This document shows positions 3,758 to 31,957 of a stretch of 32,000 bases of DNA, one piece after another. Positions within the stretch are counted from its first letter, which is position 1. Every line of letters begins with the position of its first letter. The stretch is from Candidatus Electrothrix yaqonensis (GTDB lineage Bacteria; Desulfobacterota; Desulfobulbia; Desulfobulbales; Desulfobulbaceae), in NCBI GenBank assembly GCA_047651235.1, contig CP178758.1, forward strand, positions 3,000,001 through 3,032,000, read 5' to 3'. Both the position numbers and the translations under genes were made by a program. The notes under the pieces were generated by a model, which searched no databases, had not been told where the DNA came from, and saw only the letters and a list, made by a program, of their open reading frames with translations.

Positions 3758-6700
3758 TCACTCCGTCCTGCTCACCGTCACCTTTCCTGCACCGGTCCTT
3801 GCCCGATACTCGGGTTTATACATGGCCTCCACCTCCACCGGGGGCAGGGTGTAGGTTCCCGGCGTGACAGCACGGACAAGGTAGGCGGCCCGGAATCTGT
3901 TTAGCTTGGAAGACCGGTTTACTTTGGGCAGCTGATCTGTCGCAAAGGCAGCCACAAAGCGGTCATCACGAGCATCCATATAGCGGGTTGCGGTGAGGTC
4001 ATCAAGCCAAGTAAAGGCATTATCTCCTTGCTCGATAGTTTTCTCGATTTCAAAGCCTGCAGGCAGCAGGTCCACCAGTAGAGCCTGGAAATCTTTGCCG
4101 CGTTCGACCTCGCCTTCCAGGGTGACCACGATCATATCTCCCTGCGTGGCCTGATCAGCAGGCAGCGGATCGCCGCCAATGCTGTACCATTGCCGCTGCA
4201 CAGTGAAAGCATTTTCAAGCGGCGGCGGTTCGTTTACCGGAGAACCCTGCACCGTGATTACGGCCCAGACCGCTGCTGTCCCTTTATTTTTGACATCGAC
4301 CGGATTGGTCAGCAGGTCCGTACCTTCCCGCTGCAGAGCAAAAAAGGCCGTATCTTTTTCGGATGATGCGGTTTTCTTTTTCCTGCCCCGTTTACCCTGA
4401 TCCGCCGGTGCAGCAGAGCTGCCGTTGCCCAAATGCAAGGCGGCCATGAACCTGTCCAGCAGGGAAGCCTTCTTTTTCTCCGGCTTTTTCTTTGGTTTTT
4501 CTTCCACATTTTCCCCGACAGGATCCCCGGCAATATCCAGATCAAGCGGGCTGCCCTTGTCCAGGGTCATGGCCGCCATGATCAGCCAAGTTTGTTCCTG
4601 GGTGGAAAGATATTGATCTTTGCCCACCAGCCGTGTCAGCTCCTGCCAAGCCGGGGCAGGATCCGCCTGCACGATTTTGGCATCTGCAATAATGCTGATC
4701 ACTGCGGCCAGATCACGCAGCCGGGAACCATAGTTTTGCCAGGAAAAAACCGATTCGGTCTGCGCGCTTTCCAGGGCGGTCTGTAGTCCTTTGACCGCAC
4801 GATTCCGATCCCCGAACAGGGCCAGGGCCCCGGCAATATGGGCCTGCGCCAGCGGAGAGGTCATCTGCTGAAACCAGGTATCAAAGAGATAGCGGGCATC
4901 TTCATGGCGCCCCTGTCCGGCACGGGCCAGAACCCAGTGGGCGTGGGCCAAGGCAGGGAGCTGCCCTTTTTCTGGGCTGTTGCTGTTTTTCACCTGATCA
5001 GTCAGCCACTGCATCCCCTTGCTGTAAAAATAATCCGATACAGCATAGCCCTTTTCTCTGGCCCGGGTGAGGAAATCCAGAGCATAGGCGGAGAGCCATG
5101 GCTCTGCTTCCCCGTACTCGGACCAGAGGCTGAAACTACCGTCCCCCCGCTGCTTCTGAAGGATCAGATCAATAGCCTCCTGCACCCTGCCGGGCAATTC
5201 TTTATCGGCCGGGTAGGCAAAGCGTTCGGCCAGCTCATTGGCATAGAGCAGGGGCATGGCCCGACTGGTCAGTTGCTCCAGACACCCGTAGGGATAGCGA
5301 TCCAGCTCGGCCAGCAGCCCGGCCACATCCAGATTGGGTGCGCTGGAGATGCTCAGGTTCACCTTGGCGGTCTCCGGAAACAGGCCACTGATTGTCTGTT
5401 TGTCCAAAGTGAGGATTTCACCGGGATCAACCCTGCGGTATTCGCGGCTCAGGACGGGCAAGTATTTGCCCCGGGTGTTGAGCGGGAAATCGCCGCTGTA
5501 GCTGTAGCCCTCCGGCCCGGTCACTTCAAGATGGAGATTGCCTTTGCCGATTCCTGTCGCCTGGACGGGAAAGTGCAGATTCTTCCGTTTCCCCGGTTCA
5601 AGCTGCACCGTCATCTGATTTTTTTCCTGTAGGGCCACAGCCCCGTCAGCCTTCCAGGTGATTTGGTATGCACCGGCCGGGCCGTCGATATTCTCCACCA
5701 GTAGCTGGATGCCGGATTGATCGCCTTGGGCCAGATAACGCGGCAGCGACGGAGACAGGACAACCGGGTCATTGACCCGGAGAGCCCGACTGGCAGAACC
5801 GAGCTTTTCTTTGGACCAGGCCACTGCCATAAGGCGCAGTCTGCCGTTGAAATCAGGAATCTCCAGTGGCACCGTGGCTATACCGTCCTTGCCGACCTGC
5901 ACTGCCCCGGAAAAAAGCGAAACAATGCGTACATTGGATTCCGGTGCCCCGCGCAGACTGTCCTCATCCGCCCCTGTGCGGAAGACTAGGGGTTTGCTGT
6001 CCGGCGGGATGATCAGCTGGCCGTACAGGTCGCGGATTTCCAGCCCTAGCTGCTGTTTATTGAAAAACCAGGCCAGCGGGTCGGGAGAGACAAAATTGGT
6101 GAGCTGGAGCACACCCTCATCCACTGCGGCCAGGGTCAGACGGACATCCTCTCCTGCTGCAGCTCCGCTCATGGCCACCGGCACCTGCAGGGTCTGGCGC
6201 GGACGAATCTGTTCCGGGGTTTTGATTTCCACGCCTAACCGCTGCTCTGCCGGATCAACATTGAGCCAGACCAGCCCCACAGCCCGGTTCGCGCCGGGCT
6301 GGTACACCGTTACCAGAGCATAGACCCCAGCTCCCCAGTCCGCCTCCACCGGGATCTCCACAGTCTGGCCGTCGTCAACCAGGGGGAAATTGCTGATCCC
6401 GTGGATCTGGCTGTTGGCCAGAACCAGACTGGCCCGCCCCGGATATGGGGAGGTGATGCTGAGTCTGGCAGTCTCTCCGACCTGATACTGCTGTTTATCC
6501 AGCTCCACCCTGACCGCGTCCGGGGTATCGCTCATACCGACCAGCTGTTCTCCGGCAGTAAAGCGGAACAGGGTCATCAGGGTATCATCCTCCCGGAACA
6601 GCTCCAGCCGGTAGTTTCCCCGGCCCACAGGCAGAGCAAGAGCGAGCGGCCCGGCCTGCTGCCAGGTCAGTTTATCCCGCAGCTCCTCATTATCCCGGAC

Positions 6701-9139
6701 AATCCGCTCATAGCCCCATTCCCCGTTTTTTCTGAACCACTGGTAATCAATGTCCTCGCGCACGAGCCGGTACTGCAGGGTGCCCTCCGGTCGGGGCTGG
6801 CCTTTGCTGTTCAGGGAAATAACGGAAAATGCAGCCCGGCTGTCCGCCGGAACCGGCTGATCCGTAAACTCCGGTTTCACGCCGAGGTATTCCGGGAGAT
6901 GGCGCACCGGCAGGTTGGTGGCCCCAGAAACAGCTCTGCCGTCAATATCCAGGACATCGGCATACACTACAGCCTTGAGCGGCTGCAGCGTGCTGGTCTG
7001 CTGTCCCTCAAGTCCGACGGCCAGGATACTGTAGCCCTGATCATCCGTGGTGGTGCCGGGAAGATCAATCGTGGCGATTCCCGGTTCTTCGCCCTGCCGA
7101 CCGAAAAAGAAATCGGCAAAATCAGCAAAGGGGTGGGGATCATAGAGCAGGCGCATCCGGGCCTGAACATTGAGTCCTGCACCTGGAGAGCCATACAGGT
7201 AATCAGCCTGCACCTCGACTTCGGCCTTATTATCTTCAGGGGTGAGAACGCCGTCAGGTTCCAGGCGGACTTCCAGGCGCGGCGGCTTGAAGGATTTGAC
7301 CTTGAAGCTGACCTGGCCGACCGGTTTTTCCTCCACATCCACGTACAGGGCAGCAGTCCAGATGCCGGAGCGGGCTGAGCCGGGCAGACTAATCCGATCC
7401 ATATAGGCACCGGAGGGGCCACGCCGGAGCAGCCGTTCAAACATAACCTTGGCGTCAGGCCCGTTGACCCGCAGGGTCAGGGGCGGGGCATCGGTTGCCC
7501 GGCCCAGCTGGTCCCGGATCAGCCCGACCAGATTGACGGATTCACCGGGCCGATAAATACCGCGCTCCGTGTAGACAAAAGCATCAATGGGGCCAGGGGC
7601 TGCACGTCCGGCCACGCCCCGGTCGCTGAGATCAAAAGGGGCCTGTTCAAGCTGGAAAAAGGTAAAGCCGTGTTCCTTGTCCGCAGCAACCAGCTGGACG
7701 GCAGCCTGTCCGCCTTTGCCCAGGAGCAGACCGGGAGCAAAGCGGACTTGGCCGTTTTCATCTGTAGTCAGCCGGGCAAGCGGACTGTTATTGCGGGCAT
7801 AGAGGATAATCTTCAGGCTGCTCAGGGGAAGGCCGGTGTGCAGGCTGCGGGCGATCACGGTCAGGCCGTCAAGGCCCTGATAGCTGGTCAGGCCGATATC
7901 GGTTTTGACCAGCCACTGGCTGGCCTGCCCCTCCCAGCGTTTCGGAGTGCTGCTGCCGTCCTCGGCCACCAGGACATACAACCCCGATGCAGCAAGGGCC
8001 TCTTCCGGCAGGACCACCGAGCTGGTTACATTTTCATCCGGCACCGAAGGGATCTCCGCCGTGCCTTCCCAGACCTGCTCGCCTACTTGCCTCCTGATCT
8101 TGTTCAGATCGTACTGATCCAGTTTATGGCGGAACTGACGGCGGACAAAATCACCGAGAATATTCCGTTCGTGGATGCGGAACAGGCGGCAGTGCACCTT
8201 GTCCACATTCACCGTGTACAGACCAATGGCCTGACTGCCCTGATCCGCCAGGATGTAGTCGTTCCGGTTAAACCGGAGCGCTGCCGGGCTGCGGCCGGTC
8301 TCAATGGTGAACGATGCGGCCTCATCCAGGACTTTGTTTTTCCCCTTCAGGCCCATGCGCAGGGTGACGTTGTAGGTGGTGCTGAAGGCTGCCCCGCCGA
8401 TGCACAGTTTTCTGTCCTCTACGGAAAAATCCGATTTCAGGGCCGGGCTGATCCGGACATAGCCATTGTAATGGACAGCATCCGGGCTGCGCAGTTCATC
8501 ATTGAACTGAATGCAGAGTTCCGGATGCCCGCTGTCCGTGTCGGCAAAGGATTTCTGCACCTTCAGCATGCGGTCTTCCGCCTGTTTGCGGCGCAGTTGT
8601 GCAAGCCGGTTCCCGCTGTCCGCCATGCCGCCGAGTTCTTCCAGCTGCTCATACACTGCTATTGCTGCAGGCGTCCAGTTGGCGTAAACGGTTGTCCGTT
8701 TTTCCAGGGCCATGCCGGTGAGCAACAGGGCCTCCTTCCTGGTTTCCTTGTCCTTGCCGGTCTGATAGGCCCGCCAACCGCTCCAGCTTGTCTCCTCCCA
8801 TTCTTCTTCGCAGGCAGCAGCCCGTGCCAGAGCAAGCCAGAACGCTCCGTCCGGCTGCAGGGTATATCGGGCTGCCTGTTTGTACAGGTGCATAATGCCG
8901 GAGCATTGGTCTGCGGCAACCATGATTGCACCGGCCTGTTCGAGAATTTCAGCCTGTTCAGGGTTGGCCTGGTTTGCCGAGGTTGCTGTCCTGTAGCCGG
9001 TTATGAATTTCCTGGTTTCTCTTTTCAGATCTGCAAGGCTGTGGTCTTCAGCTGCGGCCGGTGAGGCACCGGAAAATATGAATGCCAGAAGAACAGTGCA
9101 GAGAAGAAAAAACGGAAGGAGGGAGTGTTTCGTTTTCAT
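3758..9139 (-). CDS. Bacterial alpha-2-macroglobulin family protein with an intact thioester motif
   Basis: Very long ORF. The thioester signature is RYPYGCLEQLTSR (CLEQ encoded at 5273-5284). MG-domain-like beta-rich repeats run throughout. The start is placed at MKTKHSLLPFFLLCTVLLAFIFSGASPAAAED (signal peptide, ATG at 9139), not at 9217. Confidence 0.93.
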   Translation of the reverse strand: MKTKHSLLPFFLLCTVLLAFIFSGASPAAAEDHSLADLKRETRKFITGYRTATSANQANPEQAEILEQAGAIMVAADQCSGIMHLYKQAARYTLQPDGAFWLALARAAACEEEWEETSWSGWRAYQTGKDKETRKEALLLTGMALEKRTTVYANWTPAAIAVYEQLEELGGMADSGNRLAQLRRKQAEDRMLKVQKSFADTDSGHPELCIQFNDELRSPDAVHYNGYVRISPALKSDFSVEDRKLCIGGAAFSTTYNVTLRMGLKGKNKVLDEAASFTIETGRSPAALRFNRNDYILADQGSQAIGLYTVNVDKVHCRLFRIHERNILGDFVRRQFRHKLDQYDLNKIRRQVGEQVWEGTAEIPSVPDENVTSSVVLPEEALAASGLYVLVAEDGSSTPKRWEGQASQWLVKTDIGLTSYQGLDGLTVIARSLHTGLPLSSLKIILYARNNSPLARLTTDENGQVRFAPGLLLGKGGQAAVQLVAADKEHGFTFFQLEQAPFDLSDRGVAGRAAPGPIDAFVYTERGIYRPGESVNLVGLIRDQLGRATDAPPLTLRVNGPDAKVMFERLLRRGPSGAYMDRISLPGSARSGIWTAALYVDVEEKPVGQVSFKVKSFKPPRLEVRLEPDGVLTPEDNKAEVEVQADYLYGSPGAGLNVQARMRLLYDPHPFADFADFFFGRQGEEPGIATIDLPGTTTDDQGYSILAVGLEGQQTSTLQPLKAVVYADVLDIDGRAVSGATNLPVRHLPEYLGVKPEFTDQPVPADSRAAFSVISLNSKGQPRPEGTLQYRLVREDIDYQWFRKNGEWGYERIVRDNEELRDKLTWQQAGPLALALPVGRGNYRLELFREDDTLMTLFRFTAGEQLVGMSDTPDAVRVELDKQQYQVGETARLSITSPYPGRASLVLANSQIHGISNFPLVDDGQTVEIPVEADWGAGVYALVTVYQPGANRAVGLVWLNVDPAEQRLGVEIKTPEQIRPRQTLQVPVAMSGAAAGEDVRLTLAAVDEGVLQLTNFVSPDPLAWFFNKQQLGLEIRDLYGQLIIPPDSKPLVFRTGADEDSLRGAPESNVRIVSLFSGAVQVGKDGIATVPLEIPDFNGRLRLMAVAWSKEKLGSASRALRVNDPVVLSPSLPRYLAQGDQSGIQLLVENIDGPAGAYQITWKADGAVALQEKNQMTVQLEPGKRKNLHFPVQATGIGKGNLHLEVTGPEGYSYSGDFPLNTRGKYLPVLSREYRRVDPGEILTLDKQTISGLFPETAKVNLSISSAPNLDVAGLLAELDRYPYGCLEQLTSRAMPLLYANELAERFAYPADKELPGRVQEAIDLILQKQRGDGSFSLWSEYGEAEPWLSAYALDFLTRAREKGYAVSDYFYSKGMQWLTDQVKNSNSPEKGQLPALAHAHWVLARAGQGRHEDARYLFDTWFQQMTSPLAQAHIAGALALFGDRNRAVKGLQTALESAQTESVFSWQNYGSRLRDLAAVISIIADAKIVQADPAPAWQELTRLVGKDQYLSTQEQTWLIMAAMTLDKGSPLDLDIAGDPVGENVEEKPKKKPEKKKASLLDRFMAALHLGNGSSAAPADQGKRGRKKKTASSEKDTAFFALQREGTDLLTNPVDVKNKGTAAVWAVITVQGSPVNEPPPLENAFTVQRQWYSIGGDPLPADQATQGDMIVVTLEGEVERGKDFQALLVDLLPAGFEIEKTIEQGDNAFTWLDDLTATRYMDARDDRFVAAFATDQLPKVNRSSKLNRFRAAYLVRAVTPGTYTLPPVEVEAMYKPEYRARTGAGKVTVSRTE

Positions 9140-9232
9140 GGGCGTATCCTGCAGAAAATGTACTGCCCGGAGAGCAGTGTAACGGGAGAGTAACTGGCTG
9201 TCGCAATGTAAAAACACGGTACAGAAAGAAAG

Positions 9233-26349: not shown

Positions 26350-26353
<4 letters not shown>
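25298..26353 (+). CDS. thiE: Thiamine-phosphate synthase with a ~150-aa N-terminal extension
   Basis: The C-terminal half (YGILGE...VLQYREK...[26 protein letters not shown]...GCSTHS...[15 protein letters not shown]...VAIGGI) is classic ThiE. The start is placed at [13 protein letters not shown] (ATG 25298). The ORF could extend to 25232. Confidence 0.88.
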
Positions 26354-27627
<1,274 letters not shown>

Positions 27628-27646
27628 AATGTAAAACCCGGCTGCC

Positions 27647-27680
27647 TGCTGCTTCGGCCGCCTCATCCGTCGAAGCAGCA
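27647..27680. terminator. Hairpin between convergent thiC and the AT-rich cassette; possible bidirectional terminator
   Basis: Perfect 10-bp arms TGCTGCTTCG / CGAAGCAGCA with a 14-nt loop, 20 nt after the thiC stop. No clean T-tract on either side. Confidence 0.35.
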
Positions 27681-27772
27681 TGACTTACAATCCGCCTAAT
27701 TGCTCCCTTCCGCAAATGTCGGCTCCCGCCAGAAATCCCTTCTGTCGTAGAAACAGACGCAGTCGATCAGCC

Positions 27773-28087
27773 TTACTGTTTCTGACAATACGTAATCCAC
27801 TCCTTAAGTGCCTCCAATACAACCTGATAATCCACGATGACCGGGGTGAGTTCATCGCCTTCATACAGGCAGTCGAGAAAAAGACCTTCAGGTTGACATT
27901 CAAAAACATAGCCGTTGCCGGTACCTTCACATTGTTCTTTCCCGTCGTTAAGATAGGCTTGGATATTCGTTATGAGCTCCAGAGCATATTCCGGTGAATT
28001 CTGCACATCCAAGGTTAAAAATCCGTGTAACGTCTGATGTCCGGGGTCGTTGTTCGTATAACCGGACCAGCTGAATTTTTTTTTCAT
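27773..28087 (-). CDS. Small acidic cytoplasmic protein, candidate immunity/partner of the upstream EndoU-like protein
   Basis: 104 aa with no signal peptide and roughly 16 D/E versus 6 K/R. Its start overlaps the upstream stop (ATGA at 28084-28087). The codon composition is AT-rich. Confidence 0.6.
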   Translation of the reverse strand: MKKKFSWSGYTNNDPGHQTLHGFLTLDVQNSPEYALELITNIQAYLNDGKEQCEGTGNGYVFECQPEGLFLDCLYEGDELTPVIVDYQVVLEALKEWITYCQKQ

Positions 28088-28626
28088 TGCACAGGAAACC
28101 CGGTGTTGATGCTGTGGTTATCCTTCCCTGGAGCGGAAGCTATGGTAAATGCCTTGCCATTCTTCTCAGTGCAGTAGGAAGATACATCACCGTCGGACGG
28201 AGCACTGGGGCCGCAGTTTGCCCATGCCGGGGAGCTGCATTTGTCGGTAGAATGTTTAACGGAGTAGACCACAGAATTATTCACCTGCTCCATAGAACAT
28301 GTATTCGGGAACATGGTCGATATCGTTTTTGTTGCTTTCTCACCATGTATATCGAGCTTGATTTTTCTGAGCGTATAGATACCAGATACACTGCAAGTTC
28401 CTTCGTATGACAGGACAGTTGTCGGCTTTTCCCCGCCAGACATAGAGTGAAAACCTACAGCCCTGCCTTTCCGGTTTATTTCTCCGCAAAAAATATGATG
28501 CTGGTTTACCTCATAATTATCGACCTTTTTCCATTTATTCAACGTTGAACAATCAATACCGGCCGCTATGGCACTGGAAGCGTAAAGAGCTGTTGCAGCA
28601 AAGACAGTTACAGTGAAAATACGCAT
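28084..28626 (-). CDS. Secreted Cys-rich protein with an EndoU/XendoU-like nuclease motif (candidate RNase toxin)
   Basis: Signal peptide MRIFTVTVFAATALYASSAIAAG. HHIFCGEINRKGRAVGFHS fits the EndoU H-x-F-x-G-E...G-F-H catalytic signature. STMFPNTCSMEQV and the C-terminal INTGFPVQ resemble bacterial EndoU toxin domains. A GGAGGA RBS lies 5 nt upstream. Confidence 0.6.
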   Translation of the reverse strand: MRIFTVTVFAATALYASSAIAAGIDCSTLNKWKKVDNYEVNQHHIFCGEINRKGRAVGFHSMSGGEKPTTVLSYEGTCSVSGIYTLRKIKLDIHGEKATKTISTMFPNTCSMEQVNNSVVYSVKHSTDKCSSPAWANCGPSAPSDGDVSSYCTEKNGKAFTIASAPGKDNHSINTGFPVQ

Positions 28627-28714
28627 TGTTTCCTCCGAATATTTATTCTTGTTTTATAGACCAGTTATTAAGCTTGTCCTTAATTTTTTCTATAAAATTC
28701 GGTGTATTCAGCTC

Positions 28715-28801
28715 CTACAGCCAATAGCGTGCCACGACTTCCTGTTCTTCTTCAGGAAATCTGGATGCCATTTCAAAGAGTTTCTCCATAACAGCAATCA
28801 T
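28715..28801 (-). CDS. Mini-ORF (28 aa) heading the cassette; antitoxin-N-terminus-like, possibly a decayed gene
   Basis: GAGAAGGAGAAGC-ATG RBS. The peptide is MIAVMEKLFEMASRFPEEEQEVVARYWL, followed by a TAG. A further 23 in-frame sense codons run to a TAA at 28645-28647, just before the RBS of the next gene. Confidence 0.3.
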   Translation of the reverse strand: MIAVMEKLFEMASRFPEEEQEVVARYWL

Positions 28802-28945
28802 GCTTCTCCTTCTCACTACAGTGTGGAATACAAAAGCTCTTCCGCTAAATAGAATCCCATCATGCCGATATATCTAGTTTATCCTGTTCTGGCTATAAAA
28901 TCTAACGTTTTTCTTTCCGGAACAAGCGGTTCAACAGTAGCGGCA

Positions 28946-28988
28946 AAGAAAAAAAACGCCCAGCCCCGGCAAGGATGCCAAGGCCAGG
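28946..28988 (-). terminator. Rho-independent terminator of aspS
   Basis: On the minus strand: CCTGGCCTTGGCA-TCCT-TGCCGGGGCTGGG (a ~13-bp stem including G:U pairs), followed by CG-TTTTTTTT-CTTT. It begins about 25 nt after the aspS stop. Confidence 0.7.
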
Positions 28989-29012: not shown

Positions 29013-30797
29013 TTAATCTTCCTTCCAGTCGGGTCGAAGATGCAGCTCGGTGAGCTGCTTGCGCTCAACCGGGGAAGGTGCCTCGGTGAGCGGGCAGGTG
29101 GCCTTCTGGGTCTTGGGAAAGGCGATCACGTCCCGGATGGAGCTGGAGCCGGTGAGGAGCATCATCAGGCGGTCGAGGCCGAAGGCGATGCCGCCGTGCG
29201 GGGGCGCGCCGTATTCCAAAGCGCGGAGCAGGAAGCCGAACTTCTCCTCCGCCTCTTCCGCACCGATACCCAGCACCTTCAGCAGCCGCGCCTGCACCTC
29301 CGGGTTGTGGATACGGATGGAGCCGCCGCCGATCTCGTTGCCGTTCAAAACCAGATCATAGGCCCGGCTGCGCACCTTGAGCGGTTCGCTTTCGAGCAGG
29401 TCAAGGTCTTCCTCAAAGGGCGCGGTAAAGGGGTGGTGCAGGGCAGCGTGGCGTTTGCGGTCTTCATCATATTCCACCAAGGGAAAGTCGGTGATCCAGA
29501 GGAAGTTAAAAACCGATTCGTTCGCCAGCTTAAGGCGGCGGGCCAGCTCCAGACGCAGCTCGGCCAACACCTGATGGACCACAGCCGAGCTGTCCGCGCC
29601 GAACAGGATCAGGTCGCCCGGCTCCGCGTCTAGGGCATCGCGCATGGCCGCAATCTCGGCCTCGCTGAAGAACTTGGTGATGGGCGACTGCCACCCGTCC
29701 TCCTTGACCTTGATCCAGGCCATGCCCTTGGCTCCGAAATTGCCCGCGTAATCGGTCAGATCGTCCAAGTCTTTGCGCGAAAAGGTGCCGCAGCCCTTGG
29801 CGTTGATCGCCTTGACCACGCCGCCGTTGTCAATGACCGTGTTAAAGACCTTGAAGCCGCAGCCGCGCAAGGTCTCGGTCAGATCAGTCAGCTCCAGACC
29901 AAAGCGGGTGTCGGGCCGGTCCGTGCCGAAGCGGGCCACGGCTTCCTGATAGGTCATGCGGGCAAAGGGAGGGGTCAGCTCAATGCCGCGCGTCTCAGCA
30001 AAGACCCGCTTGACCATGCCCTCGCTAACAGCAATGACATCGTCCTCGCCGACAAAACTCAGCTCCATATCGATCTGGGTGAATTCGGGCTGGCGGTCGG
30101 CCCGCAGGTCTTCGTCGCGGAAGCACTTGACGATCTGAAAGTAGCGTTCCATGCCGCCCATCATCAGGAGCTGCTTGAAGAGCTGCGGCGACTGCGGCAG
30201 GGCGAAAAAACGGCCCGCGTTGACCCGGCTGGGCACCAGATAATCCCGCGCTCCTTCCGGGGTGGAGCGGGTGAGCATGGGCGTTTCCACTTCAAGGAAG
30301 TCGTTTTCGCTCAGATAGTTGCGCACAGCCTGTGCCGCCTTGTGGCGCATGATCAGGTTGCTGGCGATTTCCGGCCGCCGTAAATCGAGATAACGGTATT
30401 GGAGGCGGATGTTGTCCGATACCTCGCTGTCCTCGTCCAGCGGGAAGGGCGGGGTTTTGCTGGTGTTAAGGATGCGCAGCTCGCTGACCAGCACCTCGAT
30501 CTCGCCGGTCTGCAGCTTGGGGTTGGCCATGTCGCCGGGCCGGGCCTCAACCTTGCCTTTGATTGCCAGAACCCACTCAGAGCGGAGCTGGTGCGCCTTG
30601 GCGTGCGGCTCAGGATTTATTTCCGGGTTGAAGACCACCTGAGTGATGCCTTGGCGGTCGCGAAGGTCGATGAAAATAACCCCGCCGTGGTCGCGACGGC
30701 GAAGAACCCAGCCCATAAGGACGACGTCCTGATCCAGGTTGTCCAGGCCGAGGGTATTGCAGTCATGTGTGCGCCGCAGCGCTCCCATTGATTCCAT
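29013..30797 (-). CDS. aspS: Aspartate--tRNA ligase (bacterial type)
   Basis: 594 aa with [55 protein letters not shown] and GIAFGLDRL class II motifs. Confidence 0.97.
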
Positions 30798-30879: not shown

Positions 30880-31611
30880 TTATAGAGAAATGATTCTTCT
30901 CTCTTCTTGTATTGAGCACGTGTTATGCACATTACTTATTGTCGTACTTAACGGGCCATTCGGTAAAGTATAGATTCTCAATTTCAAGGCTAACGCAATT
31001 ATTATTCCAGCCATGTATGCAATCAATGTAAGATATGCAATAAGATATCCAACTCCTATTTTCTGATATATAAAATATGCTCCCTGCCAAGTAGAAAATC
31101 CTGTTAACATAAACAGGCAAGGGATAAGAATCAGGTTATCTCTTAAACTGATTATGTTCTCAATTCTGTTTCCTTCATGATCGTTTTCACCTCCATAAAC
31201 TTTTGGACACACCCTATGCTCCCAAGATAGCGAATTATTCCTGGTTAATATATTGATCTTTTTCTCTAAGTTTCCAAGATGATTTCCTATTGCAAATACA
31301 TGAAATATATCATTGAGTGGAAATGTTATCGTGAGCAGCAATACAGGGGTAAAAGCAACAAAAAATATATTTATGATATTTTCAGCATTCGCTCTTAAAA
31401 CTCCTGTTTTTACCGGGTTACCTACCGAATTTATAACATCCTGCAGACTTAAACCGTTAAAAGCGAGGATAAGGGAACCGACTGCCGTAATATAGGTGAG
31501 ATAATTATGGTACTTTCTAATTCCCTCCTTGTGAATGAGTTTTTCATTCCACAAGTTATTATATTCCTGAATCAGAATATATTCCTGAATCAGAATTTCA
31601 TCAGCATCCAT
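30880..31611 (-). CDS. Hypothetical multi-pass membrane protein (243 aa) encoded in very AT-rich DNA
   Basis: The start is placed at MDADEILIQEY (GAGGAAG RBS, ATG 31611). About four hydrophobic spans are present: LTYITAVGSLILAF, IINIFFVAFTPVLLLTITF, LILIPCLFMLTGF and VGYLIAYLTLIAYMAGIIIALAL. The upstream extension to 31821 overlaps the DUF2283 gene and is GC-normal, so it is probably not translated. Confidence 0.62.
   Translation of the reverse strand: MDADEILIQEYILIQEYNNLWNEKLIHKEGIRKYHNYLTYITAVGSLILAFNGLSLQDVINSVGNPVKTGVLRANAENIINIFFVAFTPVLLLTITFPLNDIFHVFAIGNHLGNLEKKINILTRNNSLSWEHRVCPKVYGGENDHEGNRIENIISLRDNLILIPCLFMLTGFSTWQGAYFIYQKIGVGYLIAYLTLIAYMAGIIIALALKLRIYTLPNGPLSTTISNVHNTCSIQEERRIISL
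31561..31596. repeat. Perfect 18-bp tandem duplication inside the membrane-protein gene
   Basis: ATATTCCTGAATCAGAAT occurs twice in tandem (31561-31578 and 31579-31596), encoding ILIQEY-ILIQEY on the minus strand. Confidence 0.95.
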
Positions 31612-31723
31612 TTTTTCTTCCTCTAATTCAATCAGATAATGAGCGTCAAAAACCCCTTGCCGGATAATCATGCCGCCTGAAAAAGCATGGTGGAAAGCTC
31701 CTCTTTGCTGGCCCGCGCCGAGA

Positions 31724-31957
31724 TCAAATGATCTCCGCCTGTCCACTGACCTGCGCAGCCCGAAACGGCATTTCCTGATAAGAAAATTCCCATAACCCGG
31801 TATCGGCTTTGGCGTGCTCAACGGTCATACTGACGATATTCCCGTTCTCATCAAGGTCAACACAAATATTCTCGTTGAGTTCTCGTGTTTCAACGATCTC
31901 TTTCTTCGTAAATTCAATCAGGGCGGTATCTGTATCGGAAAAACACTTCACTTTCAT
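31724..31957 (-). CDS. DUF2283 domain-containing protein (small antitoxin-like partner)
   Basis: 77 aa. MKVKCFSDTDTALIEF...VDLDENGNIVSMTVEHA fits the DUF2283 pattern (Y/F-D-x-x-x-D-x-L-x-I ... D-x-D-x-x-G-x-I-V-G-I-E-I). A GGAGG RBS lies inside the end of the upstream ORF. Confidence 0.78.
   Translation of the reverse strand: MKVKCFSDTDTALIEFTKKEIVETRELNENICVDLDENGNIVSMTVEHAKADTGLWEFSYQEMPFRAAQVSGQAEII

Follow-up and report, generated by a model that had tools for sequence, protein, structure and literature searches.

Barnase and barstar of Bacillus amyloliquefaciens are the classical precedent for an exported enzyme whose producer is shielded by a cytoplasmic protector, and barnase itself has no Cys. 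Here we compare this and the other closest described systems with a two-gene locus in a window of 32,000 nucleotides (nt) of Candidatus Electrothrix yaqonensis (contig CP178758.1, positions 3,000,001 to 3,032,000). In this locus a stand-alone gene for an EndoU-family ribonuclease (RNase) precursor (28084..28626, minus strand, stop codon included; 180 amino acids (aa)) is followed by the gene of an acidic partner protein of 104 aa (27773..28087, minus strand). By analogy with barnase and barstar, we consider it probable that the two genes form a horizontally mobile module which would consist of an exported EndoU RNase and a cytoplasmic inhibitor.

The likeness to barnase/barstar and related secreted RNases lies in the predicted design of both components, that is, a small basic RNase of the BECR fold (named after barnase, EndoU, colicin E5/D and RelE) that is exported by the Sec route with no delivery domain, and an acidic cytoplasmic protein, likewise small (~90-110 aa), by which the producer is protected. 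It may be noted that this is an analogy of architecture only. Neither Pfam barnase nor Pfam barstar is matched here, the enzyme has a His-His-Lys site of EndoU type and 6-7 Cys, and the partner is UPF0231/YacL-like with a modelled alpha-alpha-beta4-alpha order that is not the barstar fold. Also close are the Abp systems of Gram-positive bacteria (AbpT/AbpP/AbpI), in which a BECR RNase toxin with a Sec signal peptide is released to the medium and a cytoplasmic immunity gene lies downstream, as has been shown experimentally (PMC12582261). However, AbpT depends on a serine protease secreted along with it and contains a BetaH domain for entry (PMC12582261), neither of which was found here, and the hosts here are Gram-negative. 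A preliminary description of the locus had seen a puzzle in a cytoplasmic protector for an exported enzyme, but the Abp toxins (PMC12582261) and the recorded pairing of Tox-Barnase with Imm-Barstar along the Sec/type II secretion system (T2SS) route (PMC3482391) are precedents for this layout.

Among EndoU proteins the nearest system of known structure is CdiA-CT/CdiI of E. coli STEC_O31, an EndoU anticodon nuclease with its immunity protein (PDB 5HKQ) and, to our knowledge, the sole EndoU toxin-immunity complex of contact-dependent inhibition (CDI) in the PDB. Both nucleases are of EndoU type with a His-His-Lys(-Thr) site, and in both cases a gene for a ~105-120-aa (putative) immunity protein lies immediately downstream. 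In contrast to the window nuclease, which has a signal peptide only, CdiA-CT is the C-terminal tip of a large CdiA that is delivered through CdiB and has a domain for entry into the cytoplasm; no sequence similarity is detectable between this system and either window protein. The Tox-EndoU polymorphic toxin systems (Zhang et al. 2011, 2012) use the same toxin domain family with an immunity-like gene directly downstream, but polymorphic toxins carry N-terminal trafficking or repeat domains (CdiA, Rhs, PAAR, LXG, MafB-N and similar), none of which is present here. Sec/T2SS is the commonest export route of such toxins, and secreted stand-alone bacterial EndoU proteins have been predicted (PMC3113570, PMC3482391). 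The catalogued EndoU immunity families are SUKH, SuFu and Imm28, and UPF0231 is not among them (PMC3482391). An evolutionary link between RNase A and bacterial EndoU has also been proposed (PMC7297114).

Part of what we describe is already known, namely the EndoU annotation in GenBank and the stand-alone secreted bacterial EndoU, noted in 2011 (PMC3113570) and again in PMC3482391. The earlier suggestion that the system is undescribed therefore does not hold for the secreted enzyme by itself, but it does appear to hold for the conserved pair. In the literature that we searched, the two-gene module, its breadth of ~60 loci and the UPF0231/YacL assignment of the partner appear to be new, and no paper linking UPF0231 with EndoU was found.

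The stand-alone nuclease and its acidic partner

The 180-aa protein matches Pfam PF14436 (EndoU_bacteria) with 53.5 bits against a cut-off of 25.3 (E=4e-14), over profile positions 5-128 of 129. This is its sole Pfam match, with neither a barnase match nor a delivery domain, and the same family was matched by all 21 relatives that were scanned (best E-value 2.5e-24). The catalytic signature of EndoU is given as H, H, [SNT], [SNT] (PMC3482391) and bacterial EndoU toxins have a His-His-Lys triad (PMC9086364); residues H44, H60, S103 and T175 together with K100 fit the two definitions. Residue conservation in the nuclease family was read from alignments A2 and A8. H44 and H60, both invariant in these, lie in the segment HHIFCGEINRKGRAVGFHS (aa 43-61; 28444..28500, minus strand). 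The candidate catalytic Lys and Ser are supplied by K100-T-I-S103 (28318..28329, minus strand) of a K..S(S/T)MFP motif, where S103 is invariant in A2 and A8, and K100 is invariant in A2 and conserved family-wide; the active site of CdiA-CT STECO31 includes K261/T262, which is analogous to the K100 region (PMC9086364, Table 1). T175 (28102..28104, minus strand), the fourth signature residue, is in the C-terminal INTGFP motif and is again invariant in both alignments. The motifs MFPNTCSMEQV and INTGFPVQ are both present. As far as profile and motifs can tell, the nuclease is an EndoU-family ribonuclease.

Its first 21 residues, MRIFTVTVFAATALYASSAIA (28564..28626, minus strand), are predicted by a rule-based reading to be a Sec signal peptide, in which a basic n-region leads into a hydrophobic core and then an A-x-A site; cleavage would occur after AIA and before AG. 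In all homologues examined an equivalent hydrophobic N-terminus is present, stopping a few residues before a conserved (G/Q/E)-I-D-C. We also considered a lipoprotein and rejected it, as no lipobox stands ahead of C26 (G-I-D-C). The homologues have a length of ~165-215 aa (~60 with a clear start; a few longer ORFs have no defined start), and the architecture is that of a signal peptide plus one domain and not that of the C-terminal tip of a large toxin, as in polymorphic toxins.

All 7 Cys of the nuclease (C26, C47, C78, C110, C130, C138 and C152) are located beyond the predicted cleavage site. Six of these (all except C78, which is confined to the Electrothrix-like lineage) are conserved in the main clade, and C26, C47, C110 and C152 are near-invariant. 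In a 4-Cys clade C130 and C138 are both gone, a co-loss as expected of a disulfide pair. The overall pattern is the one expected of an extracytoplasmic, presumably disulfide-bonded enzyme. A small Cys-free clade of stand-alone EndoU (L087 874-1398, L088 2858-3916, L090 3393-3896) keeps both the hydrophobic N-terminus and the downstream partner, and therefore disulfides are not obligatory in the nuclease family.

The partner protein has a net charge of -10 and a pI of 4.3, and is without a signal peptide or hydrophobic N-terminus. Its ATG overlaps the TGA of the EndoU gene in an ATGA (28084..28087, minus strand), which couples the two genes. On comparison with an 86%-identical homologue, the ratio of nonsynonymous to synonymous substitution rates was dN/dS = 0.065/0.51 = 0.13, indicating purifying selection. 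This, together with the recurrence of the genes in dozens of loci, shows that both ORFs are real genes and not chance. No match of the partner was found in Pfam (including barstar, and PF06062 at E<=1), NCBIfam, PADLOC or PHROGs, and Pfam gave no DNA-binding domain. PDB sequence searches, made with single sequences, with profiles A2, A3, A4 and A8 and with E. coli YacL, returned no relative of the nuclease or of the partner. The AlphaFold2 (AF2) model of the partner has high confidence values (predicted local distance difference test (pLDDT) 93; predicted template modelling score (pTM) 0.87) and shows two helices that are followed by a four-stranded sheet and then by a further helix at the C-terminus. 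Out of 350,542 PDB chains, the top Foldseek match of this model is 5hkq_I, the CdiI of E. coli STEC_O31, and this ranking, at a weak score, is suggestive of a resemblance between the modelled partner and an EndoU immunity protein.

Most of what the preliminary description had read from the locus was found again in these analyses. The signal peptide, the 7 Cys of the mature part and the EndoU-like motifs (FP..CS.EQV, TGFP) are all there in the 180-aa protein, the claim of an EndoU nuclease stands with the catalytic signature kept, and the acidic partner with its charge, its lack of a signal peptide and its ATGA overlap lies on the minus strand exactly as described. The absence of delivery functions is likewise borne out, both in the protein and in the window, where Pfam annotation of the encoded proteins gave no genes of the type V, VI or VII secretion systems (T5SS, T6SS, T7SS) and no Rhs genes. 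As for the profile matches to known families that had been looked to, EndoU_bacteria was recovered for the window protein and its 21 relatives, but no immunity family was matched by the partner.

The partner shares size and acidity with UPF0231/YacL (PF06062), and the two are linked through profiles (E 1e-9 to 1e-12), but the window partner has no direct PF06062 match. An exhaustive one-step search with A3, the profile of the close partner family, collected 275 cluster representatives. It retrieved P0050, P0053 and P0066 at E=3e-12, 7e-12 and 9e-10 respectively, and these score 30.4, 34.6 and 52.6 bits against PF06062 (cut-off 25), P0066 representing the YacL-proper subgroup. Among the 132 short matches from the same search, 89 match UPF0231 at E<=0.01. 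A family-spanning alignment gave 96% hhalign probability against E. coli YacL, whereas the close-family profile A3 alone was not significant against it. Some proteins above the UPF0231 cut-off are themselves EndoU-linked, namely the P0050 type, from Nitrosovibrio tenuis, and the 70-82% relatives of P0050 (L040-L045); P0050 is itself annotated as UPF0231. By transitive homology we assign the window partner to the UPF0231/YacL superfamily as a divergent and distant member.

The partner family has several variants, such as a tandem domain duplication in P0083 (186 aa) and proteins with N- or C-terminal extensions (for example P0089 with 201 aa and P0113 with 250 aa). Several very long repetitive proteins among the profile matches (P0040, P0042, P0048 and others) seem to have been matched spuriously through their repeats. 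It was also seen that an AdoMet_dc gene follows the closest homologue of the window partner (L009 543-881) and that E. coli yacL (L034 389-751) also adjoins speD; this shared neighbourhood is probably a coincidence.

Conservation and mobility of the gene pair

A partner homologue is found directly downstream of a stand-alone EndoU gene with signal peptide in ~60 independent loci that have enough upstream DNA. They come from Nitrosomonas, Oceanospirillaceae/Thalassolituus, Vibrio cholerae, Celerinatantimonas, Chromatiales, metagenome-assembled genomes (MAGs) of Gamma- and Alphaproteobacteria, and metagenomes, so that the pair spans several proteobacterial classes and Desulfobacterota. The pairing was recovered from either side. 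When the search was seeded with EndoU, the partner was immediately downstream in 6 of 7 homologues, including those of Vibrio cholerae and Celerinatantimonas, and when it was seeded with the partner, a signal-peptide EndoU gene of 167-192 aa was directly upstream in all contexts examined. All genome loci (9 of 9) have the pair. A metagenome scan that was seeded with a distant partner subgroup yielded 51 loci, of which 44 have an EndoU gene upstream of the partner; for 5 of the remaining 7, <350 nt of sequence is available on that side. The co-occurrence of the two genes, on which the preliminary description had made its proposal depend, is therefore almost always observed.

The two genes are closely spaced. 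The 4-nt ATGA overlap is seen in 14 of 31 metagenomic pairs, the genes share 8 nt in Vibrio and Celerinatantimonas, and in other pairs a short gap separates them. Pairwise identities of nuclease and partner co-vary over 37 pairs (r=0.89, Mantel p=0.001). In the same pairs the charges are opposite, the mature nuclease having a median pI of 9.0 and net charge +5, and the partner a median pI of 4.6 and net charge -8.

The genes on either side vary by locus and include P2-like prophage ends, a resistance-nodulation-division (RND) efflux operon, ribosomal protein genes and an opp-type ATP-binding cassette (ABC) importer. Nucleotide homology of the window to the two closest contigs (L008 and L009) ends ~15 nt outside the gene pair, and therefore the mobile unit is just the two genes. 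In Celerinatantimonas (L003 1-10561) the cassette is seen amid phage genes (P2 gpU, gpD, an integrase and a helix-turn-helix (HTH) protein), and in V. cholerae (L001 1-10579) it is seen amid Phage_Tail_Tip, an M23 peptidase and a 4182-aa Eco57I/SNF2/LPD39 polyvalent protein, which suggests prophage cargo in these two hosts. Yet we did not find the cassette in IMG/VR viral contigs, INPHARED phages or PLSDB plasmids, and so this prophage setting does not generalise. Neither cassette polymorphism nor a polyimmunity array was seen. In loci of the 4-Cys clade (L004 1-5504, L006 405-5516, L035 2838-4993), the nuclease gene comes after an opp/dpp-type ABC importer or its SBP_bac_5 gene, overlapping the latter by 4 nt in L035; this points tentatively to joint expression with a system for periplasmic uptake.

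Proposed mode of action and its alternatives

In the mechanism that we propose, the precursor with its Sec signal peptide would be exported unfolded across the inner membrane, cleaved after AIA21 and folded outside the cytoplasm, where the six conserved Cys probably form three disulfides. The mature enzyme would then be an active, metal-independent RNase using the His-His-Lys site. The partner, translationally coupled through the ATGA overlap, would stay in the cytoplasm, where its acidic surface may bind the basic nuclease and cover the RNA-binding face, and it would neutralise any nuclease that folds before export or re-enters the cell. Sec exports unfolded chains, and therefore a nuclease-partner complex would not be co-exported, which fits a partner without signal peptide. 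The EndoU profile match and signature, the signal-peptide-like N-termini, the Cys pattern, the strict synteny, the co-divergence, the opposite charges and the absence of a delivery domain were observed, whereas export, disulfide formation, RNase activity, binding and inhibition by the partner, and the biological target are inferred. As to use, where we are less certain, the exported enzyme most likely serves antagonistically, as a diffusible or periplasm-released RNase toxin, which we favour because of the island-like mobility, the prophage cargo positions and the tight co-divergence.

Several points weigh against the proposed module of an exported RNase with its inhibitor. An enzyme that needs its disulfides might have no activity under the reducing conditions of the cytoplasm, and a cytoplasmic inhibitor would then be less necessary. 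The nuclease has no visible cell-entry domain, so its route into a target cytoplasm is left unexplained. Also, the partner has no sequence-level link to known immunity families, and the structural match to 5hkq_I is weak (E=0.17, probability 0.75, template modelling (TM) scores 0.50/0.45, root-mean-square deviation (rmsd) 5.3 A). The AF2 model of the nuclease, made from a 7-sequence alignment, has a pLDDT of 75 and gave no EndoU structure among its Foldseek matches in the PDB; with a mediocre model and no structural neighbour, the assignment of the EndoU fold, which is alpha/beta with two subdomains, therefore rests on the hidden Markov model (HMM) match and the motifs only. Structural comparison, to which the preliminary description had looked for both proteins, thus favours the partner in rank only and does not reach the nuclease. 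Next to the EndoU homologue P0006 the partner is replaced by an unrelated 176-aa gene ~100 nt downstream (L006 5614-6144, L007 1075-1605), which has no Pfam match and gives 0.1% in hhalign against the partner family; it may be an alternative immunity gene. Lastly, E. coli YacL, unlike the window partner, is not EndoU-linked, yacL (b0119) lying between acnB and speD with no EndoU neighbour, and it binds RNA polymerase and NusG, its function being not known (PMC8196013).

As the main alternative, the enzyme could be a nutritional or housekeeping exo-RNase comparable to RNase I or barnase, degrading periplasmic or extracellular RNA for nucleotides and phosphate, with the partner as a safety inhibitor only and no other cell targeted. 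The lack of a receptor-binding or translocation domain would suit such a role, as would a disulfide-rich build in a long-lived extracellular enzyme and, in one clade, the location of the EndoU gene as the last of an opp/dpp-type ABC importer operon, including the 4-nt SBP_bac_5 overlap in L035. But this operon linkage is limited to that clade, and the patchy, island-like distribution, the copies at prophage ends and the low-GC islet of the window (see below) resemble what is seen with conflict genes more than with metabolic genes, while toxin/immunity pairs typically show such close co-divergence of an enzyme and its own inhibitor. We therefore consider the exo-RNase unlikely, if still worth keeping in mind. 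The findings on YacL raise another thought, that the partner does not inhibit at all and is either a YacL-like regulator associated with RNA polymerase or a chaperone for export, by which the precursor would stay competent for secretion. Its family profile does retrieve bona fide UPF0231/YacL proteins, of which that of E. coli binds RNA polymerase and NusG (PMC8196013), and the window partner matches no curated immunity family. Against this, the partner gene is strictly adjacent and translationally coupled to the gene of one particular enzyme, with which the partner co-diverges and whose charge it complements, and its best structural match is an EndoU immunity protein; moreover, Sec substrates normally rely on SecB or the signal recognition particle (SRP) and not on dedicated chaperones. 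Such a non-inhibiting partner appears very improbable to us.

An overlapping two-gene operon of a BECR-fold-class RNase and a small acidic neutraliser, with some copies in prophages, is also reminiscent of a cytoplasmic type II toxin-antitoxin or abortive-infection module, in which case the hydrophobic N-terminus would be no functional signal peptide. However, the signal-peptide architecture and the 4-6 conserved Cys are kept across the family, the gene order is toxin-first, where a type II antitoxin is usually encoded ahead of its toxin, and the partner has no DNA-binding domain such as a type II antitoxin carries; in addition, PADLOC gave no matches and the cassette is absent from the IMG/VR, phage and plasmid collections. 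We give this explanation hardly any credence. An exported EndoU RNase with a cytoplasmic inhibitor is the reading that we retain.

If the partner does inhibit, it would define a new EndoU immunity family beside the SUKH, SuFu, Imm28 and CdiI types, and would give the first mechanistic lead for UPF0231/YacL, which is conserved in E. coli and many Proteobacteria. The pair would then be a minimal RNase weapon or exo-enzyme with no delivery machine, mobile as a 0.86-kb cassette that moves between lineages as distant as cable bacteria, nitrifiers, marine oil-degraders and Vibrio cholerae prophages. Going further, one may speculate about a widespread class of Sec-exported, disulfide-locked EndoU RNases with UPF0231/YacL neutralisers, which would make UPF0231 a new RNase-immunity family; we regard this generalisation as rather doubtful at present. 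Were it true, YacL could be seen as a relative, domesticated or orphan, whose binding to RNA polymerase involves the same acidic surface that mimics nucleic acid, and the secreted, Cys-rich, His-His-Lys enzyme with its cytosolic inhibitor would be a bacterial counterpart to vertebrate RNase A and ribonuclease inhibitor (PMC7297114). A secreted, presumably disulfide-rich EndoU is also a useful comparison point for the proposed connection of EndoU and RNase A.

Setting of the cassette in the window

The cassette lies in a low-GC islet (27640..28950) of ~1.3 kb, which in the composition profile has 39-51% GC against ~60% in the flanks. It fills the space between thiC (26350-27627, plus strand) and aspS (29013-30797, minus strand), whose 3' ends converge on it; both genes were identified by Pfam. 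A terminator-like hairpin with a T-run (28959..28988, minus strand) ends aspS and marks the upstream edge of the islet. A Shine-Dalgarno sequence GGAGG (28632..28636, minus strand) can be read 5 nt before the EndoU ATG (28626). The product of the EndoU ORF is 100% identical to an NCBI 'EndoU domain-containing protein' of Candidatus Electrothrix sp. YB6, a MAG of a cable bacterium, and that of the partner ORF is identical to 'hypothetical protein ACL93V_14130' of the same organism. Within the islet no Rfam RNA elements were found, a repeat search gave no att-like boundaries, a promoter scan stayed at background level, and the fold of the 3' intergenic region was not significant (z=-0.8).

Upstream of the EndoU gene there is a small ORF (28715-28816, minus strand) with its own GAAGGAG ribosome-binding site, reading MIAVMEKLFEMASRFPEEEQEVVARYWL up to an in-frame TAG. 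Beyond this TAG it would run on in frame to ~28643, ending in ELNTPNFIEKIKDKLNNWSIKQE and a stop 16 nt before the EndoU start. It has nothing significant in Pfam and could be a decayed small gene carried in with the islet. On the other side of aspS we noticed a second low-GC patch (30880-31821, minus strand) of 34-40% GC. It holds an ORF of 313 aa that includes hydrophobic segments and is not matched in Pfam, and aspS therefore has foreign-looking islets on both sides. The remaining window is of housekeeping character, comprising alpha-2-macroglobulin, cdaA/ybbR/glmM, thiamine genes and ABC ATPases. The first of these (3758-9217, minus strand) encodes a bacterial alpha-2-macroglobulin of 1819 aa with MG, bait-region and TED domains, an ordinary protein of its kind that is unrelated to the cassette.

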